In this document: positions 1-15,060 of the stretch, piece by piece | How the letters are laid out: every line of letters begins with the position of its first letter | Position numbering within the stretch: the stretch's first letter is position 1 | Origin: a virus | Lineage: Duplodnaviria; Heunggongvirae; Uroviricota; Caudoviricetes | Reading direction: 5' to 3' (one strand) | Virus record (IMG/VR): IMGVR_UViG_2703718792_000011 | Coordinates: 1 to 19,384 of that record | Length of the DNA stretch: 19,384 nt | The notes under the pieces: model-generated | The model's input: only the letters and a program-made list of their open reading frames with translations | What the model was told of the DNA's origin: nothing | Databases searched by the model: none | Translations under genes and position numbers: made by a program

Positions 1-1314
1 CTAACCCACTGATTTTAATAAGTCTCTTGTGTCACTTTGGTGACCATGGGACATCATTGGGACATAATCTGCCAGCTTCTGATTCAGCATTGCGATCTGT
101 TCTGCATTACTGTCAGTCATCCATGCTCCGTATACATTGAACACCATCTGGGCACTTGCATGACCCATCTGGCTGGCAATGAAGCTTGGGTTTGCTCCGG
201 CAGATAATGACCAGCACGCATAAGTGTGTCGTGACTGGTATGCTTTCCGGTGCCTGATGCCCGCACGCTTAATGGCTGTTTCCCATGAGTCGCCAATAGA
301 ATCTACCTTGTAGATAAAACCGACCTGTTTGCTTTTTCTAACCACCTGGGGGTTAAATACGAAAGTACATTCATGATTCACTGAACGCCCATATTCACGT
401 AGTTGAACCTTGATGTGGTGCTGCTTACCCAGTCTTGTCATTTCAGCCTGATTTTTCAGGACACTGATAGCGGGCTGGATAAGATGCACAACCCTGTTTG
501 TACTTGCTTCAGTTTTAGGTAGAGTGAACTCACCGAGTTTCGTATAATTGCGCCTGATAGTAATAGTTCCTGCTTTCAGATCGATATCTTCCCAGGCCAG
601 GGAGACCAGTTCACCGTGACGCATTCCTGTGTACACAGCCAATGACCACAGGTTTTTCGTCTGCTGATGTCGGCAAGCATCTATCAGGCGAATAAATTCG
701 TCACGAGTTAGCGGATCTGGCTCTGCCCTGGCTCTTTTAAGAGGCTTAATTCCCTGGAAAGGATTTGCTTCTAAGTAACCGTGATCTGCAGCAAACTGAA
801 ACATTCCAGCGATTGTCGTCATGTAATAATTTACAGTAACGACGCTCCGTCCTTTTGCTGCTGCTTTGTTTTTCGTTGAATTCTGATATCCGGTCAGCAA
901 ATCTTTCCTGATATACAGCAATTCCTCTTTAGTTACCGATGACATCAGTCTGCTGCCTCCAATTTTCGGAACCATCGTTCTTGCAACGGATTCATAGCGA
1001 TTGAATGCATTTGCAGAGATTTCCATTCGTTTCAGATCCAGCCACTTTTCTTCAAGTTCCTTCACCGTAATTTCTTTTTTACTTACCCCAAAAGCCTTGA
1101 GGTTAGGAGAGTCAGGGAACTGCGCAGCGTAATCAAAGTTTCCTGTACGAATAGCAAAACATACAGATGTCCGCAGCTCTCCGGCGATCTTCCTGTTCTT
1201 GGCAGTGTCAGGGACACCAAGATTTTCCCTGACACGTTTACCTTTAAAATTAAACCAGATGCGTAATGTGCCACCGTGGTTTTCGACGCCTGTTGGATAT
1301 TTGACTTTATCCAT
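1..1314 (-). CDS. int: Phage tyrosine integrase (site-specific recombinase), complete; stop codon at window positions 1..3
   Basis: 437-aa ORF with a basic N-terminal arm-binding-like region and a C-terminal catalytic region (R...HxxR...Y-type motifs such as SRHTYA and VYGAW). GGAGG Shine-Dalgarno 6 nt upstream of the ATG at 1314. Sits at the terminus of a leftward operon, as expected for a prophage int. Confidence 0.9.
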   Translation of the reverse strand: MDKVKYPTGVENHGGTLRIWFNFKGKRVRENLGVPDTAKNRKIAGELRTSVCFAIRTGNFDYAAQFPDSPNLKAFGVSKKEITVKELEEKWLDLKRMEISANAFNRYESVARTMVPKIGGSRLMSSVTKEELLYIRKDLLTGYQNSTKNKAAAKGRSVVTVNYYMTTIAGMFQFAADHGYLEANPFQGIKPLKRARAEPDPLTRDEFIRLIDACRHQQTKNLWSLAVYTGMRHGELVSLAWEDIDLKAGTITIRRNYTKLGEFTLPKTEASTNRVVHLIQPAISVLKNQAEMTRLGKQHHIKVQLREYGRSVNHECTFVFNPQVVRKSKQVGFIYKVDSIGDSWETAIKRAGIRHRKAYQSRHTYACWSLSAGANPSFIASQMGHASAQMVFNVYGAWMTDSNAEQIAMLNQKLADYVPMMSHGHQSDTRDLLKSVG

Positions 1315-1369
1315 TGATACCTCCAGACGCCCAAGAGCGATACGAGCTTACATACTTCATGGCATTAAA

Positions 1370-1606
1370 TCACCCAGGTTGTTTGTTTTTCATTGAAGCG
1401 ACCCAGGCATCTATTGCTTTTCTGTTATACATACATTCACTGGAAGGCTTTGGATTACCGTCTGGTGATACGTGAATATACTCTCTTCCAACCATCCAGC
1501 ATTCTTTCCGGGCCCGAAGAATTGTGCCTGGTTTGAGCCCGGTAATTGCGATTAGAACGCTTTCACAAACCCATTCATTGGGAGCCAGTTGAATCACATT
1601 GCCCAT
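1370..1606 (-). CDS. Excisionase-like small DNA-binding protein (DUF1233-type putative excisionase)
   Basis: 78-aa ORF directly upstream of int on the same strand. The sequence MGNVIQLAPNEWVCESVLIAITGLKPGTILRARKE...REYIHVSPDGNPKP resembles the putative-excisionase family as I recall it. GAGG sits just upstream of the ATG. Confidence 0.55.
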   Translation of the reverse strand: MGNVIQLAPNEWVCESVLIAITGLKPGTILRARKECWMVGREYIHVSPDGNPKPSSECMYNRKAIDAWVASMKNKQPG

Positions 1607-1614
1607 GCATTACC

Positions 1615-1761
1615 TCACACAACACCCAGCCCACGGCAGTGGCCCCACACTTCAAACATTCGTTTCACAATTTCACGACAGTAGAAACCGTCAACATCTC
1701 GTGTCAGGTCATAGCGATTGCCGTAACGCTGGTGGACCCATCGTTCAAATGCTTTATTCAT
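1615..1761 (-). CDS. Small hypothetical protein (48 aa), not in the ORF track because it is under 60 aa
   Basis: Hand translation of the - strand gives MNKAFERWVHQRYGNRYDLTRDVDGFYCREIVKRMFEVWGHCRGLGVV. AAGGAAG lies 6 nt upstream of the ATG, which is 4 nt after the stop of the upstream gene, and its own stop is 9 nt from the xis-like start. Packing is consistent with a real gene. Confidence 0.35.
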   Translation of the reverse strand: MNKAFERWVHQRYGNRYDLTRDVDGFYCREIVKRMFEVWGHCRGLGVV

Positions 1762-1764
1762 TCT

Positions 1765-2007
1765 TTACTTCCTTTTCATGGCTCGTAATTTTTTCAGATG
1801 AGCTTCCTGCTCTGTTTCTGCCAGAATTTGTCGGTATTCCTGGTGATCGATCCGTTCAAACAGTTCATTAAAATCGTTTATTTTTACCGACTGTGTTCGC
1901 CCATCCATTCTTCTGTACAACACGATGTTATTTATGCAGCGAATAATTTTTACCGGGTAACCGGCACTGTCGGTATACAGTTGCCCTTGATTAATCAAAG
2001 CGAACAT
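1765..2007 (-). CDS. Hypothetical early-left protein (80 aa)
   Basis: The ORF track gives 1765..2130, but the internal ATG at 2007 is preceded by AGGAG (4-nt spacer) and follows the upstream gene stop at 2039. Protein MFALINQGQLYTDSAGYPVKIIRC... has no family I recognise. Confidence 0.6.
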   Translation of the reverse strand: MFALINQGQLYTDSAGYPVKIIRCINNIVLYRRMDGRTQSVKINDFNELFERIDHQEYRQILAETEQEAHLKKLRAMKRK

Positions 2008-2038
2008 TTTTTCTCCTGTTCCCTGAGTTGTGAGAACT

Positions 2039-2419
2039 TCAGAGCCGTAAGTTGGTAGCGGGTTCAATACTGATAATTTCTGCTGAGATAAGCATTCCGG
2101 CAAGCCATAGCTCTCCGGACAGGTCTTCATCCTGGCATGTCAGTTCGCCAATATTAATGGTGGCCATGATATCCGTTCCACCTGTGCGCTCATTCCGGAC
2201 TTCTTCATAAGGCAGCGTTTCGTACAGGCTTTCAATAGCGCAACTGATAACATCGAGTCCGGTCAGGTTGCCACCGACAGTGACTTCGAATGTTTCGCGG
2301 TATTCCCATAGTCCGAAAGTTAATCGAACAGTTTGTTTTGCCATGCGTCCGCATAACGTCAGATTTGGGTCATAGTTCATAACTTCAGATGAGGAACATT
2401 GTGTCTCGATGCTATTCAT
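2039..2419 (-). CDS. Hypothetical strongly acidic early-left protein (126 aa)
   Basis: ORF with AGGAG 6 nt upstream of the ATG; the SD overlaps the stop of the upstream gene. By approximate hand count about 20 D/E against 7 K/R. No recognisable domain. Confidence 0.65.
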   Translation of the reverse strand: MNSIETQCSSSEVMNYDPNLTLCGRMAKQTVRLTFGLWEYRETFEVTVGGNLTGLDVISCAIESLYETLPYEEVRNERTGGTDIMATINIGELTCQDEDLSGELWLAGMLISAEIISIEPATNLRL

Positions 2420-2423
2420 TTTG

Positions 2424-2696
2424 TTACTCCTGATTTTTTCGGATTGCCTTTTTCAATTTTTTACCGTTATTCACGTTACAGTAAATTTCGGCAAGTTCGC
2501 GTGATAACATTATTTCTCCGTTATTTTTATCTATAGCAATGTGATCGGGATTATCACGAATAAATTTCTTTATCATTGGCATTGCCATAAACTCTTCTGG
2601 CGTATAGATGCGTGTATGGCGGCGAACGTGTTTTATCACAGGTGTTTTATGTTTTGATTCAACCTGAAATACATTAATTTTATTTTGATTTGCCAT
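2424..2696 (-). CDS. Hypothetical basic early-left protein (90 aa)
   Basis: ORF in operon context, starting 7 nt after the stop of the upstream gene with no clear SD (translational coupling possible). K/R-rich, with a C-terminal KKLKKAIRK stretch. Confidence 0.55.
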   Translation of the reverse strand: MANQNKINVFQVESKHKTPVIKHVRRHTRIYTPEEFMAMPMIKKFIRDNPDHIAIDKNNGEIMLSRELAEIYCNVNNGKKLKKAIRKNQE

Positions 2697-2703
2697 GTGT
2701 AAT

Positions 2704-3285
2704 TTAATGTGTCACTGGTGCTTCTGGTATACCATGAGTATTCAGATCGTGAATCATTTCATCCAGAAGGAGTTCAAGCCCTTCGCGGCCCATAGCAGAG
2801 ACAATGAAACCATTATCAGGATCTGCGATGAGCATTTTTTGATAGAGAAACAGAACTCGCCCCATGCCTTCAGCTTCGCCATATTTTTCAATGAATCCCC
2901 ATTCGACATGGTTTTGCAGGGCAATGCGAATTGGTTCAGGGTATATACTCATGCAACCATATTTCCCCTTATAAATAACTGCACGATATGTAGTCCCATT
3001 ATCGTTAGGGATATCAACGGTGCCGTTCCTGACTTCCTCTTCATTTATAAACGTCGTAACATACAGCCAGCGCCATTGAGCAACTTTCATATCGACGGAT
3101 AATTTTCCCAGCAATCCGGCATCATCCGCTTCAGCAAGGCACTGAAGAATTCTTAAACCGCGTGAATTTGGATAATCATATTCACCATCATTAAGTCGCT
3201 GTACGGCCTCGGCATAATCTATGGTTGTATTGCCAATTTTTATACCGTGTGGCGTAACTTCTGGTCGGAACTCTGAATGATTCAT
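2704..3285 (-). CDS. Hypothetical early-left protein (193 aa), net acidic
   Basis: Start placed at the internal ATG 3285 (AAGGAG with 8-nt spacer) rather than the track start at 3342. ATGA start/stop overlap with the upstream gene. No recognisable domain. Confidence 0.7.
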   Translation of the reverse strand: MNHSEFRPEVTPHGIKIGNTTIDYAEAVQRLNDGEYDYPNSRGLRILQCLAEADDAGLLGKLSVDMKVAQWRWLYVTTFINEEEVRNGTVDIPNDNGTTYRAVIYKGKYGCMSIYPEPIRIALQNHVEWGFIEKYGEAEGMGRVLFLYQKMLIADPDNGFIVSAMGREGLELLLDEMIHDLNTHGIPEAPVTH

Positions 3286-3470
3286 AATGTTTGCTCCTTT
3301 GCTGGTGGAATAATCGTGTAACCCGCTCTTTTTGCCATCCACAGAAATGTATCCATGCAGCCAACGAATTCATTATCCAACAGATGTTTTGAGTAAATTA
3401 CTTCACCATTTTCAATGGTTAGCAACACTCTTGCTTTTTTATGGGTTATGTTTTGTTGTTTTTCTTCCAT
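3282..3470 (-). CDS. Hypothetical small early-left protein (62 aa)
   Basis: Start placed at ATG 3470 (GGGAGA with 7-nt spacer); stop overlaps the start of the downstream gene (ATGA). Confidence 0.55.
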   Translation of the reverse strand: MEEKQQNITHKKARVLLTIENGEVIYSKHLLDNEFVGCMDTFLWMAKRAGYTIIPPAKEQTL

Positions 3471-3474
3471 TGAC

Positions 3475-3588
3475 TTATCTCCCATATGCTTTGCGCAAAT
3501 ACAGGTTGGCTATATGAAGATAAGAATCTCCATGTTGTGCAATGAGGCAGGCAGTTTTATACGATGCCTTATGTTTCAGGAAAGTCAT
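3475..3588 (-). CDS. Possible small protein (37 aa), not in the ORF track
   Basis: Hand translation gives MTFLKHKASYKTACLIAQHGDSYLHIANLYLRKAYGR. AGGAG lies 8 nt upstream of the ATG, and its TAA stop lies within the SD of the next gene. Short, so uncertain. Confidence 0.25.
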   Translation of the reverse strand: MTFLKHKASYKTACLIAQHGDSYLHIANLYLRKAYGR

Positions 3589-3666
3589 GACATAATCTCC
3601 TGCGAATAAAGGTTGCAACAATCCCCGGCGATAAAACCGTAATAAACATTCAGGGAATATTTATTG

Positions 3667-4032
3667 TTATTGCGCTAATTCTTTTTCGGCAGCAGCTTTT
3701 GCATACTCACATGCAAAATTCAGAATTTCGCTGCCGAGTGTTTTCGTTTCGTGATTACTGGAAATATGTAATACCTGTGTTGCATGCAATAAATGATAAA
3801 CATTTACCGCAAATGAATCAGGCTCCAGACAAATGCCTTCATAATCATCTTGTTGTGAGGTTGTTTCTGTCATTGCTCCTGAAGTGCATGCGAGCCTGTT
3901 TTTGACAATTCTCTTTCCTCTAATCACTATATCGGCAACATCTATTGCCTTCACAACCTCCGGGAGAAGTTCCTGGTTTGTATAATCAAAGTTATCAACA
4001 TGGAGAACAGTTATGTTTTCGAACTTTTTCAT
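3667..4032 (-). CDS. Hypothetical early-left protein (121 aa), net acidic
   Basis: ORF with GAGGAA 3 nt upstream of the ATG at 4032. No recognisable domain. Confidence 0.65.
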   Translation of the reverse strand: MKKFENITVLHVDNFDYTNQELLPEVVKAIDVADIVIRGKRIVKNRLACTSGAMTETTSQQDDYEGICLEPDSFAVNVYHLLHATQVLHISSNHETKTLGSEILNFACEYAKAAAEKELAQ

Positions 4033-4160
4033 GGCTTCCTCAGCTGACTTATATGTTCTGCTATATAGCGAGTCTCAGAAGTGTTTTCATATTGAGACTG
4101 TTTCCGCAATGATTGATAAAAATGTTCGCATGTACCTTGAGGGGCGAAGCGGCGATTATG

Positions 4161-4667
4161 TCACCATTGGTATTGGTTCTTCCGTAGAAGAGCTTCGCGA
4201 GATAAGGGGCAAACTTGTTGAGATGCGTCATGGTGTTGCTGTTCCTCACTTTTTGGTTGCTCCGGAGGAGTAACCTCACCAGTTAACAGCCACATCGGAT
4301 CGCAGCCAAGAATATTTGCCAGTGGGATAAGCATACTGATAGTTGGTTCATACTCTCCGCTCTCCCACTGGATGATAATTTCTTCATCGAGATCGAGCAG
4401 CTTGGCGAGTTCGGCGGTTGTTAAGCCGCAGGCTTCGCGTTGGGTGCGAATCCGATTCTGGGAATTAATAGCTAAATTTTGTTTGCATAAACGCGACGCT
4501 GTGAGGCTATATTTTTGAGTTACAGCCAGGATGGAGCTGGCAAGTTCAATTAACTCAGGGTTATTGCTGCTATACAGTAGTGCACCAGCCCCGACTAAGA
4601 GCTGAATATTCTCAAGAGCATCGTGCTGATTTGTTGGTAACCCCATATACGATGACATTTTTCTCAT
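4161..4667 (-). CDS. Helix-turn-helix (XRE/Cro-C1 type) domain protein with an N-terminal extension of about 60 aa and a C-terminal tail; first gene leftward of cI
   Basis: 168-aa ORF. The central segment IRTQREACGLTTAELAKLLDLDEEIIIQWESGEYEPTISMLIPLANILGCDPMWLL matches the XRE HTH pattern. GAGGA precedes the start region. It has its own promoter (4708..4736) and is separated from cI by an intrinsic terminator. Confidence 0.7.
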   Translation of the reverse strand: MRKMSSYMGLPTNQHDALENIQLLVGAGALLYSSNNPELIELASSILAVTQKYSLTASRLCKQNLAINSQNRIRTQREACGLTTAELAKLLDLDEEIIIQWESGEYEPTISMLIPLANILGCDPMWLLTGEVTPPEQPKSEEQQHHDASQQVCPLSREALLRKNQYQW

Positions 4668-4707
4668 CCTCTATAATTGCTTTGGTGAGTTCGATACTTA
4701 TGCCATA

Positions 4708-4736
4708 ATAATAGGTTTACCGATTGTGTCTGTCAA
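4708..4736 (-). promoter_or_regulatory. Near-consensus sigma70 promoter for the HTH gene (TTGACA, 17 nt, TATTAT on the - strand); candidate PL
   Basis: On the - strand the -35 TTGACA is the complement of 4731..4736 and the -10 TATTAT is the complement of 4708..4713, with a 17-nt spacer. It lies about 40 nt upstream of the ATG at 4667. Confidence 0.55.
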
Positions 4737-4741
4737 TCGGT
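4719..4741. promoter_or_regulatory. Perfect 8-bp-arm inverted repeat ACCGATTG-N7-CAATCGGT overlapping the -35 and spacer of the promoter above; candidate operator
   Basis: Read directly from the sequence: ACCGATTG at 4719..4726 and CAATCGGT at 4734..4741. Confidence 0.5.
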
Positions 4742-4756
4742 TTATCGATTTTTTCC

Positions 4757-4782
4757 AAAAAAAAGCCCACTTAAGAGTGGGC
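4757..4782 (-). terminator. Rho-independent terminator for the leftward cI transcript
   Basis: GCCCACT-TAAG-AGTGGGC hairpin (4765..4782) preceded on the + strand by eight A (4757..4764), giving a hairpin plus U8 on the - strand transcript. Lies 20 to 45 nt downstream of the cI stop. Confidence 0.75.
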
Positions 4783-4800
4783 GGGTTAAATGATTTTTGC

Positions 4801-5493
4801 TTATGCAAAACGGTGTAGTGTCATAGGCCAACTGACAATTACTTTTCCGTCAATGTGAAGTTGTTCAAAGTCTTCCGGTTCGATAGCCCAATCCTTGTAA
4901 GCTGGGTTGTCAGATATCACCGTTAGAGTATCTTTGATTTTTTGAAGTCTTTTGATGTGCGATGTTCCAGAGTATGTAAAGGCGTATATACCATCACCAT
5001 TAAATGTGCGAACTGATACATCTACAAATACCAAGTCTTCAGGGTCTATTGTGCCTTTCATACTGTCGCCGTGGGCGTTTATTGCTTTGATTGCTGATGC
5101 TGGTCTGCCGCCAAAAACTCTTGATGCGTATCCTGGTTCTATCGCTATAGATCTGACAATGTCAGGAAAATCAGAGTTATAACTACCAGGTCCGCAACTA
5201 TATCTGATGTCTAAAACATCCACGACATACGAATCAGTAACCCAATCCTCAGAAATGTTACGTATTTGGTGTGAGTCTGCAGAGGTCACGATTTCCATTG
5301 GGCCAACACCCGATGCGAGCCATTCCGGGTTAACGCCCAAAACTTTTGCTATTTCGACTGTTTTTCTGGAACCGTTGGCTTTGTTAAGTAGTTGATTGAC
5401 ACTGGACTGAGCCATACCCACTTCTTTGGCCAGCCTACCTTGCGTAAATTTTGCGTTGCGCATAGCTAAATCAAGTCGTTCTGAAAATGTCAT
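4801..5493 (-). CDS. cI: cI-type prophage repressor (N-terminal HTH, C-terminal LexA-like S24 peptidase autocleavage domain)
   Basis: 230-aa ORF. N-terminus has an HTH (FTQGRLAKEVGMAQSSVNQLL). C-terminus has the Ser/Lys dyad context (GDSM ... HIKRL) typical of S24 repressors. GGAGG precedes the ATG. It is divergent from the cro-like gene. Confidence 0.9.
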   Translation of the reverse strand: MTFSERLDLAMRNAKFTQGRLAKEVGMAQSSVNQLLNKANGSRKTVEIAKVLGVNPEWLASGVGPMEIVTSADSHQIRNISEDWVTDSYVVDVLDIRYSCGPGSYNSDFPDIVRSIAIEPGYASRVFGGRPASAIKAINAHGDSMKGTIDPEDLVFVDVSVRTFNGDGIYAFTYSGTSHIKRLQKIKDTLTVISDNPAYKDWAIEPEDFEQLHIDGKVIVSWPMTLHRFA

Positions 5494-5527
5494 TGCGATT
5501 TTCCTCCCCTCTCTATCTTGGCTAGTC

Positions 5528-5543
5528 TATCGGCTTTCCGATA
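5528..5543. promoter_or_regulatory. 16-bp perfect palindrome TATCGGCTTTCCGATA in the cI/cro intergenic region; candidate OR operator
   Basis: Read directly from the sequence. A partially similar half-site, TATCGCTTTTCC, lies at 5566..5577 inside the putative PR spacer. Confidence 0.5.
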
Positions 5544-5561
5544 AATGTTCTAGGTTTAACG

Positions 5562-5590
5562 TTGAATATCGCTTTTCCTGTTGTTATTAT
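5562..5590 (+). promoter_or_regulatory. Candidate PR promoter for the cro-like gene (TTGAAT, 17 nt, TATTAT)
   Basis: -35 at 5562..5567 and -10 at 5585..5590, about 22 nt upstream of the cro ATG. Confidence 0.5.
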
Positions 5591-5612
5591 GCGTTCAATA
5601 GGAGATGCGATT

Positions 5613-5858
5613 ATGAAACATAAAGCCATAGAGAAAGCTATTGAGATTCTTGGAAGTCAGCAAGCCTTAGCCAAGCGATGCGGAAAGGCCCAGTCAACAG
5701 TCTGCGATTGGTTGAACTGCAAGAACAAGATTTCACCAGAATTTGTGCCGTTATTGGTTGCAGCTGTCGACGGAAAGATCCAGGCGTATGAATTTCGTCC
5801 AGACCTACCAGAGCTTTTTCCACATCCAAGCTTAGCGCACACAGAGGATGAGAAGTGA
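5613..5858 (+). CDS. cro: Cro-like HTH regulator (YdaS/Cro family), 81 aa
   Basis: Start placed at ATG 5613 (GGAGA with 7-nt spacer); the track start at 5562 lacks an RBS. The motif ILGSQQALAKRCGKAQSTVCDWLN matches the YdaS-type Cro HTH pattern as I recall it. Divergent from cI. Confidence 0.8.
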   Translation: MKHKAIEKAIEILGSQQALAKRCGKAQSTVCDWLNCKNKISPEFVPLLVAAVDGKIQAYEFRPDLPELFPHPSLAHTEDEK

Positions 5859-5928
5859 TGGTGGTGATATGAGCGAAAAAATAACTATTAAATACGATGG
5901 GGCAACCATTTCGATTACCCCAATCACA

Positions 5929-6222
5929 TTAGCGTTCGCTGAGAAGTTGTTGGTAAGCCTTAAAGGATGCGAACTGCATTCTACCTTCGGCATTGATTCC
6001 AATGCCTTCGCTTGTACACCAGGCGATGAACTCGGCTGTATCCGCTTCAACTTTAATAACTCGTTGCCCGCTTCTTTCGACACGCTTAATCAATTTTTCA
6101 GCGTCGTGTTTCCACTCGGTGTAACTGTCGGAGAGCACATCAGCATCAGTAAAAATATTTTTGAGCTCATGATACTGAATCGCATCGCGAAACCAGAATA
6201 AACCAACGGCCTGAACTTTCAT
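5929..6222 (-). CDS. Hypothetical protein (97 aa) encoded antisense within the rightward early operon
   Basis: AAGGAGG lies 6 nt upstream of the ATG at 6222. It is convergent with cro and divergent from rha. No recognisable domain. The overlapping + strand ORF 5848..6201 has no RBS. Confidence 0.7.
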   Translation of the reverse strand: MKVQAVGLFWFRDAIQYHELKNIFTDADVLSDSYTEWKHDAEKLIKRVERSGQRVIKVEADTAEFIAWCTSEGIGINAEGRMQFASFKAYQQLLSER

Positions 6223-6335
6223 GTCGAACCTCCTTTGGTTCTTTTGTTTATAGGGATCAACAGGATAACTGAAGGAAGGTTCGGCACCAATAAGTACGAA
6301 TGTGCGGAATCTTAAAAGAATTTATCCGTAAGGAG

Positions 6336-7049
6336 ATGGCAGTGAACACCGCAATTTTTAACGGCAAAGCATCCATGACCAGCCTTGAAATCGCAGAGTT
6401 GGTGGGCAGCCAACACAAAGATGTTAAGCGCAGCATTGAAAGGCTCATGGATAAGGGGATTATTCGAAGTGCGCCAATGGCGAATTTCGAAATAATCAAC
6501 AACTTAGGATTAAAACGAAATGTAGGTGCTTACATCTTCGAAGGCGAACAAGGTAAGCGCGACAGCATCATTGTCGTCGCACAGCTTTGTCCCGAATTCA
6601 CAGCCCGCCTGGTAGATCGCTGGCGTGAACTGGAAGAACAGATCCGTAAGCCAATGAGCGAAATCGAAATGGTTGCCGCGATGGCTCTTGAAGCTGTTCG
6701 TCAGCAGAAACGGATCATTCAGGTGGAAGAAAAAGTCAGCCACGTTGCCGAAACAGTTGAGCAAATCAAAAAGGGCACCATTCGTGAGGGCTATGCCGGA
6801 TATCGCCAACTGAAAGCGAAAACCGGTTTGTCAGATGATAAATGCCGCAATCTGGTGAACGCTTATCAAATTCCTACAGACACCCACGAGTTCATGACGC
6901 CGGACGGATTGTTATCACGTCGCGCAATTGTTGCTGTGGAACCGTTTATGGCTGCTTTTTATCGGGTTATGGAGGAAGCAGAACCGCGAGGGACTCGCTG
7001 GTATCACCCGAAAATGGGGTTATTTCAGGTTATTGGCTGGCAGCGGTGA
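6336..7049 (+). CDS. rha: Phage regulatory protein Rha family (antirepressor-like)
   Basis: The N-terminal motif MTSLEIAELVGSQHKDVKRSIERL is characteristic of the Rha family as I recall it. AAGGAG abuts the ATG at 6336, so an alternative GTG start at 6342 (6-nt spacer) is possible. Confidence 0.8.
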   Translation: MAVNTAIFNGKASMTSLEIAELVGSQHKDVKRSIERLMDKGIIRSAPMANFEIINNLGLKRNVGAYIFEGEQGKRDSIIVVAQLCPEFTARLVDRWRELEEQIRKPMSEIEMVAAMALEAVRQQKRIIQVEEKVSHVAETVEQIKKGTIREGYAGYRQLKAKTGLSDDKCRNLVNAYQIPTDTHEFMTPDGLLSRRAIVAVEPFMAAFYRVMEEAEPRGTRWYHPKMGLFQVIGWQR

Positions 7050-14007: not shown

Positions 14008-15060
14008 ATGAAAAACACTGTAAAAATAAACAGTGTTGATTTAATCAACGCTGATTGCCTGCATTTTATTCAGTCCCTGCCTGATGATTCCATTGACCTG
14101 ATTGTTACCGATCCGCCTTACTTCAAGGTGAAACCCAACGGTTGGGACAATCAGTGGAAAGGGGACGAAGATTACCTTAAGTGGCTGGACCACTGTCTGG
14201 CCCAGTTCTGGCGGGTGTTAAAGCCTGCCGGAAGCCTTTACCTGTTCTGTGGGCATCGCCTGGCATCTGATATTGAGATCATGATGCGTGAACGTTTCAA
14301 CGTGCTTAACCATATCATCTGGGCGAAGCCGTCCGGACGTTGGAATGGGTGTAATAAAGAAAGTCTGCGCGCATATTTTCCTGCCACAGAGCGCGTTCTG
14401 TTTGCTGAACATTACCAGGGGCCATATCGCGGCAAAAGTGACGGCTATGCGGCAAAAGAAAGGGAACTCAAACAGCACATAATGGCACCGCTGATATCGT
14501 ATTTCAGGGATGCTCGTGCCGAACTGGGTATAACGGCAAAACAAATTGCCGAAGCCACAGGTAAGAAAAATATGGTTTCCCACTGGTTTGGTGCCAGTCA
14601 GTGGCAGTTGCCGAACGAGGCTGACTATCGGAAGTTACAGGCACTGTTTTCCCGTATAGCGGCAGAGAAGTTTCAGGAACAACAACTGGAACAACCACAC
14701 CACCAGCTGGTGGCATCTTATGATTCACTGAATCGCAAATATTCTGAATTGCTGGATGAGTTTAAATCTCTCCGGCGCTATTTCTCCGTATCAGTCTCCG
14801 TGCCTTATACCGATGTCTGGACGCATAAGCCCGTTCAGTTCTACCCGGGTAAACATCCGTGCGAGAAACCGGCGGATATGCTCCGGCAAATAATCAATGC
14901 CAGTAGTCGCCCTGGTGATCTGGTTGCTGATTTCTTTATGGGATCCGGTTCCACAATAAAAGCAGCAATGGCGCTGGGGCGTCGGGCGTTAGGTGTTGAA
15001 CTTGAGTCAGAGCGGTTTAATCAGACGGTGAAAGAGGTAAGTGAACTGTTGGGGAAATAA
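14008..15060 (+). CDS. Orphan DNA methyltransferase (beta-class N6-adenine or N4-cytosine MTase; DPPY motif precedes the AdoMet-binding FxGxG motif)
   Basis: Motif IV IVTDPPYF near the N-terminus and motif I FFMGSGSTIKAAMALGRRALGVE near the C-terminus. No restriction endonuclease gene is adjacent. Confidence 0.9.
   Translation: MKNTVKINSVDLINADCLHFIQSLPDDSIDLIVTDPPYFKVKPNGWDNQWKGDEDYLKWLDHCLAQFWRVLKPAGSLYLFCGHRLASDIEIMMRERFNVLNHIIWAKPSGRWNGCNKESLRAYFPATERVLFAEHYQGPYRGKSDGYAAKERELKQHIMAPLISYFRDARAELGITAKQIAEATGKKNMVSHWFGASQWQLPNEADYRKLQALFSRIAAEKFQEQQLEQPHHQLVASYDSLNRKYSELLDEFKSLRRYFSVSVSVPYTDVWTHKPVQFYPGKHPCEKPADMLRQIINASSRPGDLVADFFMGSGSTIKAAMALGRRALGVELESERFNQTVKEVSELLGK

Follow-up and report, generated by a model that had tools for sequence, protein, structure and literature searches.

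Small early-left genes of a phiP27-like Escherichia coli prophage form an accessory region of a known kind

What do the small genes between a helix-turn-helix (HTH) regulator gene and the excisionase gene xis contribute to a lambdoid prophage? The question is raised by positions 1615-4032 of the window, by which we mean the whole 19,384-nt stretch of tailed-phage DNA analyzed here (IMG/VR record IMGVR_UViG_2703718792_000011), where an initial annotation had seen a leftward early operon packed with uncharacterized genes and had proposed these as candidate anti-defense or host-takeover cargo. As it stands, this is an ordinary phage accessory region of a known kind, and nothing shows that it blocks host defenses. 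By analogy with the exo-xis (ea) region of phage lambda, we suggest, with the chances about evenly balanced, that it is a pL-type early-left unit of a phiP27-like phage and that its small proteins are early accessory modulators, the counterpart of that lambda region.

What was observed directly is which genes the unit contains, how its promoter and operators read, to which families the proteins belong and how selection acts on the genes; from this we infer every molecular activity proposed below for the small proteins. The products of the open reading frames (ORFs) were scanned for families in Pfam, NCBIfam, PHROGs and PADLOC, structures were predicted for two of them (p3 and p5 in the list below) and compared with solved structures, and the reality of a gene was judged from its homologues in related phages and, where divergence permitted, from the ratio of nonsynonymous to synonymous substitution rates (dN/dS). 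Positions 1300-4800 are 100% identical to E. coli 377323_2f (NZ_CP039404.1) and align at about 95% identity, across 76% of the segment length, with the Shiga toxin 2e (Stx2e) phage phiP27; 674 of the 5,426 complete E. coli genomes have a match to the segment. The integrase gene (1-1314) adjoins the host genes yecE (DUF72), yecN and cmoA in the source genome, and among the remaining genes of the window are those of a lambdoid-style immunity region, of replication and lysis, of a Q-type antiterminator and of a P27-type terminase. Integration at yecE, taken together with this lambdoid-style and P27-type gene content, identifies 1615-4032 as the early-left arm of a phiP27-like prophage.

The features that bear on control of the region lie beyond its right-hand end:

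4801-5493: gene for a cI-like repressor of the LexA family, with an S24 peptidase domain
4765-4782, minus strand: intrinsic terminator-like hairpin with a 7-bp stem containing 5 G-C pairs, followed by a T-run, TTTTTTTTGG
4736-4708, minus strand: near-consensus sigma-70 promoter, the candidate pL analogue, with TTGACA, a 17-nt spacer and TATTAT (11 of 12 matches)
4711-4724: operator-like 14-bp palindrome ATAGGTTTACCGAT, overlapping the -10 hexamer of the promoter
4736-4749: operator-like 14-bp palindrome ATCGGTTTATCGAT, overlapping the -35 hexamer of the promoter

The promoter is the best sigma-70 site within 1300-5900. The hairpin, read from 4782 to 4765, stands just downstream of the cI-like gene and parts repressor transcription from the early-left unit, and no minus-strand terminator-like site was found from the promoter down to int. 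A perfect version of the palindrome, ATCGGCTTTCCGAT, is present at 5529-5542 in the cI/cro intergenic region. The pattern ATCGGNTTNCCGAT, allowing up to two mismatches, has nine matches in the window against 1.65 expected, and the only sites with no more than one mismatch are the two at the promoter and the one at 5529-5542. A strong promoter therefore stands beside a repressor gene, its operators are of the same type as the cI/cro (OR) site, and the genes downstream run in one direction and end in xis and int at the attachment-site end, as is expected of a pL-type unit. From this layout we infer cI repression and a single read-through transcript. In a lysogen, the cI-like repressor would probably occupy the two palindromes and so silence the unit; once the SOS response is induced, or upon infection, a single leftward transcript would pass through p9, the eight small genes, xis and int. 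The promoter scan within the eight minus-strand genes returned a single promoter-like site, a weak 9/12 match inside p8.

The genes of the unit, in the order in which this transcript would reach them, are:

4161-4667, minus strand: p9, HTH_3 regulator of 168 aa (161 aa from the start at 4646 chosen by the Prokaryotic Genome Annotation Pipeline, PGAP), first gene of the unit
4013-4273, plus strand: 86-aa protein, phrog_6104, with an alternative ATG at 4031
3667-4032, minus strand: p8, probably 121 aa, phrog_5451
3475-3588, minus strand: p7, 37 aa, no family
3282-3470, minus strand: p6, 62 aa, neutral, phrog_340
2704-3285, minus strand: p5, 193 aa, phrog_1515
2424-2696, minus strand: p4, 90 aa, basic, without a Pfam or PHROG family
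2039-2419, minus strand: p3, 126 aa, DUF5406
1765-2007, minus strand: p2, 80 aa, basic, DUF4222
1615-1761, minus strand: p1, 48 aa, basic, phrog_3871
1370-1606, minus strand: xis, 78-aa excisionase of the DUF1233 family
1-1314, minus strand: int, 437-aa tyrosine integrase at the prophage end

Eight real minus-strand genes thus lie between the HTH gene and xis, where eight to nine had been claimed. All of them, p1 to p8, have homologues in related phages, and dN/dS is well below 1 wherever divergence allows the test, spanning 0.05-0.4 over the tested genes. The idea that they form one translationally coupled operon survives only in part. The sole ATGA overlap is that of p6 and p5 (-4 nt); the p7/p6, p4/p3, p2/p1 and p1/xis junctions have spacers of 3-8 nt with a Shine-Dalgarno (SD) sequence inside or beside the preceding stop, and p5 and p4 are separated by 7 nt without an SD. 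The p3/p2 (31 nt), p8/p7 (78 nt) and p9/p8 (128 nt) junctions, the last of which is occupied by the plus-strand gene, are uncoupled. This spacing points to two coupled blocks, p7-p6-p5-p4-p3 and p2-p1-xis, within each of which translation would be coupled, and not to one continuous string.

Database searches gave the small proteins families rather than functions. Every PHROG match of the eight falls in the category "unknown function", and the absence of any Gam, Bet, Exo, Erf, Kil or Ral signature was borne out in Pfam, NCBIfam and PHROGs. The initial annotation recognized no family among them; no characterized function emerged, yet p2 belongs to DUF4222 and p3 to DUF5406. Confident homology to housekeeping phage functions, such as recombination or replication accessory proteins, had been named as the result that would speak against the cargo proposal; it was looked for in the same three databases, and none was found. 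No similarity was seen when all nine proteins were compared by tblastn with the int-to-N region of lambda, single-protein and profile searches of PDB sequences were empty, and PADLOC gave nothing for p1-p8 and only generic HTH matches for p9. Positions 1615-4667 contain no exo/bet/gam, erf/abc or recT module, and none is annotated elsewhere in the prophage; in the place of an N antiterminator the first gene encodes an HTH_3 regulator, and nothing like lambda N was seen among the proteins. No PHROG match is annotated as anti-restriction or host takeover, although no dedicated anti-defense profile search was made and known families are not fully excluded. An Rfam scan of 1-7000 gave no credible match, a literature search found no paper naming DUF5406, PF17400, PF13973 or the PHROG identifiers, and the main text of a preprint describing a screen of phage accessory genes (10.1101/2023.04.06.535777) does not mention this phage type. 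The structural part of the initial reading, an early leftward unit of small uncharacterized genes beside an immunity region and lacking a recombination module, is thus upheld, whereas its anti-defense and DNA-mimic part gained no positive support.

Regulatory affinities of two of the proteins, p2 and p8, support the modulator reading. The p2 protein matches PF13973 (DUF4222) at 56.3 bits against a cut-off of 27 and phrog_285 at 8.9e-33, and the latter profile also matches the regulator RgdR at 2.1e-31. We take p2 to be the 80-aa form at 1765-2007, because AGGAG lies 5 nt upstream of its start, the full PHROG profile is matched and PGAP makes the same call; a 121-aa ORF at 1765-2130, which overlaps p3, was rejected, being unsupported by profile or SD position. 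RgdR (ECs1581), a 99-aa protein of pI (isoelectric point) 10 from prophage CP-933C/Sp7 of E. coli O157:H7, compared here as encoded in the Sakai genome, binds DNA non-specifically, activates LEE1 of the enterocyte effacement locus (LEE) and represses motility (PMC3378721, PMC10877973), and its RGD motif has been linked to activation of LEE and type III secretion (PMC3378721). It is the only experimentally characterized relative of the eight proteins. Compared pairwise, the relationship is remote (33% identity over 27 residues, E 0.18), with QGQ of p2 aligned to the RGD of RgdR (residues 20-22). No LEE context came to light for the strain, although no search aimed at one was made. We suggest that p2 may be a small basic DNA-binding regulator of the RgdR type.

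The case of p8 leads to the neighboring regulator. The p9 protein has an HTH_3 (Xre-type) match at 1.7e-11, a match to phrog_4836 ("CII-like regulator") at 8e-51 and an additional N-terminal domain, and, to judge from sequence comparison, the C-terminal half of p8 is a paralogue of that N-terminal domain as found in p9 and L10-type regulators. The profile phrog_4587 matches p8 residues 57-121 at 1e-27 and p9 residues 3-58 at 4e-7; phrog_4836 matches p8 residues 69-114; p8 and p9 align in BLASTP with E 0.003; and tblastn aligns p8 with the L10 regulator of PhiR49_2 at 45% identity over 47 aa. The same domain occurs in Stx2 phages as a free 66-aa protein adjoining a 242-aa regulator. As a free copy of a regulator's non-DNA-binding domain, p8 could pair with the regulator or titrate its partner; pairing or competing with p9, it would thereby modulate p9.

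The length of p8 has to be settled separately, as PGAP calls a 68-aa protein (3667-3873). The 121-aa form matches phrog_5451 from end to end (4.4e-82), and its N-terminal half is kept as an intact ORF in homologues at 45-65% identity, with dN/dS of 0.36-0.40; on these two grounds we favor 121 aa with moderate confidence and judge the 68-aa form less likely. The N-terminal half (3874-4032) differs from ASU11, phiP27 and PhiR49_2 at only 2-4 of 159 nt, in contrast to p7, which differs from PhiR49_2 at 31 of 111 nt, and in P0400 the N-terminal half is more conserved than the C-terminal half. Further constraints may act on this half of p8, for instance those of the plus-strand gene's promoter and 5' end.

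Comparison of gene content among relatives bears on the same issue. The four genes p8-p7-p6-p5 occur together in phiP27, MS8345, ASU11, PhiR49_2, an Stx2a phage (with p8 only as the short 66-aa form) and metagenomic contigs, and in the relatives examined the block is kept even where the HTH regulator region diverges. The variable part of the operon lies between p5 and p2. In many relatives a cassette of roughly 1.05 kb lies there, between p4 and p3, encoding a hydrophobic 62-aa protein and an SPFH/Band_7 protein annotated as "serine protease" or "lipoprotein" and containing a G+C-rich hairpin (L004, 2600-3652; phiP27, L002, 2480-3307), which is absent here (between 2419 and 2424), while PhiR49_2 has Ea22, EaA and other genes in the variable slot. 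The pattern appears to fit a conserved core module with a moron slot, and fits less well a region composed wholly of fast-turnover counter-defense genes.

The acidity of several proteins had been the principal hint of anti-defense activity. The hand counts behind it were accurate, being exact for p3 (20 D/E against 7 K/R; net -13, pI 4.09) and right in direction for p4, strongly basic with 18 K/R against 10 D/E (pI 9.9), and for p5 (net -12, pI 4.9) and p8 (net -7, pI 5.1), both net acidic; p1 (pI 9.2) and p2 (pI 9.5) are also basic. Strong acidity, however, is confined to p3; the acidity of p5 and p8 is mild, and their pI near 5 seems unremarkable for cytoplasmic proteins.

The p3 protein is a clear member of DUF5406, matching PF17400 at 81 bits against a cut-off of 25 over profile positions 1-116 of 116. 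Acidity characterizes the family: its 66 aligned members range in pI from 4.05 to 5.03, their net charge has a median of -12, and residues 97-104 form an acidic stretch that is conserved, as are basic residues at 25, 28, 32 and 41. The predicted structure is confident, a beta-rich alpha/beta fold without a significant match among solved structures, and neither in sequence nor in fold does p3 resemble a known DNA mimic. In Pseudomonas Mu-like prophages, DUF5406 homologues lie in the early region, flanked by an AAA_22 gene, taken by us to encode the transposition B ATPase, and by DUF3164/GemA/Mor; others occur in the left operon of a Serratia lambdoid prophage, in Marinobacterium and Treponema elements, and in an element with primase, methylase and integrase genes. 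One metagenomic member (P0115; L012, 192-725) continues at its C-terminus into a fused Lar_restr_allev (PF14354) zinc ribbon, and a Treponema phage contig with DUF5406 has a separate Lar-domain gene (L019, 623-964) about 5 kb upstream in the same gene string. For the modulator reading, p3 would be an acidic inhibitor of a basic, probably nucleic-acid-binding, protein of host or phage.

Less can be said of the other small proteins, and for p1, p4, p6 and p7 no informative relatives were found. The p5 protein gave a confident alpha/beta model with no significant solved structural neighbor. Its family has His as the very last residue in at least 90% of members (alignments A3 and A4), and the 14 closest members (alignment A3) share the motifs W-R-W and N-G-T-x-D without variation; such motifs and a terminal His would be unusual for a simple binder and hint at a catalytic or metal site. 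The p7 gene starts with ATG at 3588, with AGGAG 8 nt upstream, and stops 4 nt before the start of p6; this start replaces that of a TTG-initiated ORF at 3475-3621. Its product is 70-97% identical in five relatives, dN/dS against PhiR49_2 and Stx2_14040 is about 0.08 with differences mostly at third codon positions, and it is annotated in phage PhiR49_2, although not in the RefSeq record of the source genome. The dN/dS values are 0.05-0.12 for p6, 0.14 for p4 and 0.2-0.26 for p1. A domain related to p6 forms the C-terminus of a 183-aa Serratia prophage protein. MS8345 and ASU11 both keep the p4 gene, and a homologue of 33% identity is encoded by a Serratia prophage; an origin of p4 as a deletion chimera was ruled out, since it is intact and 90% identical in MS8345. 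Homologues of p1, p3, p4 and p6 recur in the left operon of the Serratia prophage, where p1 is, as here, directly upstream of an excisionase-like gene.

The plus-strand gene is real and under purifying selection. Its 86-aa product matches phrog_6104 at 6.5e-49, GGAG lies 5 nt upstream of its start, all five other frames over 4013-4273 contain stops, and of the 60 nt differences from the ASU11 copy 34 are at third codon positions (dN/dS 0.18). Its 5' end overlaps the divergent 5' end of p8, and its last 113 nt are antisense to the convergent tail of p9. That tail, 37 residues encoded by 4161-4273, is not conserved in ASU11, and it is missing from L018, whose 138-aa HTH gene directly adjoins p8; it looks like incidental read-through into an inserted cassette. 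The cassette is present in five relatives (MS8345, PhiR49_2, ASU11, L016 and L017), absent in L018 and truncated in phiP27. The gene is unannotated in the RefSeq source record, whereas GenBank records give it as hypothetical. Searches of Pfam and the PDB gave no match for the protein, which shows no similarity to either SieB or Rex and no membrane segments obvious by eye. A perfect TATAAT (3981-3986) and a TTGACA (3903-3908) can be read in the sequence upstream, while the promoter scan found no full plus-strand promoter upstream of 4013. The gene may be a moron expressed against the operon.

Taking these results together, we suggest that the small proteins would be non-enzymatic binders that tune the decision between lysis and lysogeny, excision and host physiology in the first minutes. 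Several observations weigh against this proposal. The analogy with lambda is positional only, there being no homology to the exo-xis or pL proteins of lambda; the kinship of p2 with RgdR is remote, and the RGD motif is missing from p2; the structure searches gave no relatives of p3 or p5 from which a partner could be guessed; the near-invariant polar residues and C-terminal His of p5 could mean an enzyme rather than a binder; and the convergent plus-strand gene could interfere with a single read-through transcript.

Anti-defense cargo, the proposal from which this analysis started, would have at least one of the small proteins, p3 above all, inhibit a host nuclease or defense system such as type I restriction or RecBCD, by binding its DNA-binding surface as Ocr, ArdA, Gam and Ral/Lar do, and so compensate for the missing Gam/Red module. 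The small size, early position and pI of 4.1 of p3, the acidity of DUF5406 as a family trait and its presence in early regions of unrelated temperate phages are in keeping with this, as are the Lar_restr_allev fusion, the Lar-domain gene in the same Treponema operon and the lack of a Gam- or Abc-type RecBCD inhibitor in the left operon. The Lar link, however, is a single fusion, and in our view the Lar zinc ribbon is a promiscuous domain. Ocr and ArdA are of higher charge density, the net -13 of p3 being well below theirs. No annotated anti-restriction or host-takeover PHROG was matched, p5 and p8 show mild acidity at most, and the block from p5 to p8 looks like a conserved core module and not like variable cargo; moreover, the one experimentally characterized relative is a regulator, RgdR for p2, and p8 is paralogous to a domain of the neighboring regulator. 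We therefore regard anti-defense cargo as rather unlikely for the region; it is possible mainly for p3, yet unsupported. More doubtful still is a bolder version in which DUF5406 would found a new and widespread family of acidic early proteins with an unseen fold, present in temperate phages of lambdoid, Mu-like and other types in Proteobacteria and beyond; its members would neutralize a DNA-binding enzyme of host defense or repair, restriction alleviation being a possible role in view of the single Lar-domain fusion, and in this version the p8-p7-p6-p5 block with the antisense 86-aa gene would be a second regulatory module of phiP27-like phages.

One or several toxic host-takeover proteins, which like lambda Kil, Rac KilR or Mu Kil would block cell division, replication initiation or transcription and have no part in defense or in the lysis-lysogeny decision, would account for operators that overlap a strong promoter, since tight repression suits harmful genes, and for a position and control resembling those of lambda kil and of the Mu-like semi-essential early region with its DUF5406 gene. 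No similarity to Kil, DicB, CbtA or other known inhibitors was seen, however, and the unit is intact in many E. coli genomes (the 674 with a match), a finding compatible with toxicity without demonstrating it; we consider this explanation improbable. Lysogenic-conversion or exclusion morons, active in the lysogen, are a very unlikely explanation for the region, as at most one gene of this window could qualify. That gene is the plus-strand one, which is oriented against the repressed operon, comes and goes among relatives like a cassette and has the two upstream hexamers; the SPFH lipoprotein cassette between p4 and p3 of relatives would be the other candidate, which this window lacks. Apart from the weak site in p8, no promoter-like sequence was seen that would belong to the eight minus-strand genes themselves, PADLOC gave no defense match, and no full plus-strand promoter was reported upstream of 4013. 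Of these readings, the modulator reading has the best support.

Two observations concern the rest of the prophage. In the source genome, the portal and prohead-protease genes (L003, 3783-5651), just past the right end of the window, are annotated as frameshifted pseudogenes, and given these the prophage may be defective. A gene for a 350-aa DNA methyltransferase lies at 14008-15060 on the plus strand, just upstream of the holin and lysis genes and outside the early-left operon; an orphan phage methylase is a known route of restriction evasion.

Prophages of the phiP27 type are common in E. coli and include Shiga toxin phages, and their early-left operons are without a characterized gene. The region thus offers a short list of targets: two modeled proteins without solved relatives, a regulator of the RgdR family, a decoy-like copy of a regulator domain, and two genes missed by RefSeq in the source genome, p7 and the plus-strand 86-aa gene. 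Should any of these genes prove to control induction or to counter defense, this would bear on the induction of Stx phages and on the conflict between prophage and host.

Among known systems, p3 recalls T7 Ocr, ArdA, lambda Ral and Rac Lar in its small size, early position and family-wide acidity, and the Lar-type zinc ribbon fused to one DUF5406 homologue adds to the likeness; at net -13 and pI 4.09, p3 answers only loosely to the description of a very acidic small protein, and p5 and p8 do not. In sequence and in its beta-rich alpha/beta model p3 differs from these proteins. The semi-essential early region of Mu-like phages is likewise a string of small early accessory genes including DUF5406, but phage type, replication mode and regulators differ, and only the DUF5406 gene is shared. 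Lambda sieB, between N and ral (NC_001416), resembles the plus-strand gene in being oppositely oriented inside a leftward unit, whereas the latter is much smaller than SieB or RexAB and shares no sequence similarity with them. RgdR is closer to home: p2 is likewise a small, basic DUF4222 and phrog_285 protein encoded in a prophage early region, although it has 80 aa rather than 99 and QGQ in place of RGD. The gene adjoining xis in lambda, orf55, is not a DUF4222 gene. The promoter-operator layout matches the lambda arrangement of pL/OL relative to OR, whereas the lambda pL operon differs in having exo, bet, gam, kil, cIII and N, all missing here, and in sequence. The nearest likeness is to the exo-xis region of lambda and Phi24B (PMC8614690); the lambda genes are expressed early and influence lysogenization and induction (PMC3824215, PMC7093339). 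There, too, small and mostly uncharacterized early genes lie under a repressor-controlled leftward promoter just upstream of xis-int and are mosaic among relatives, and PhiR49_2 has Ea22 and EaA themselves in the variable slot of the operon described here.

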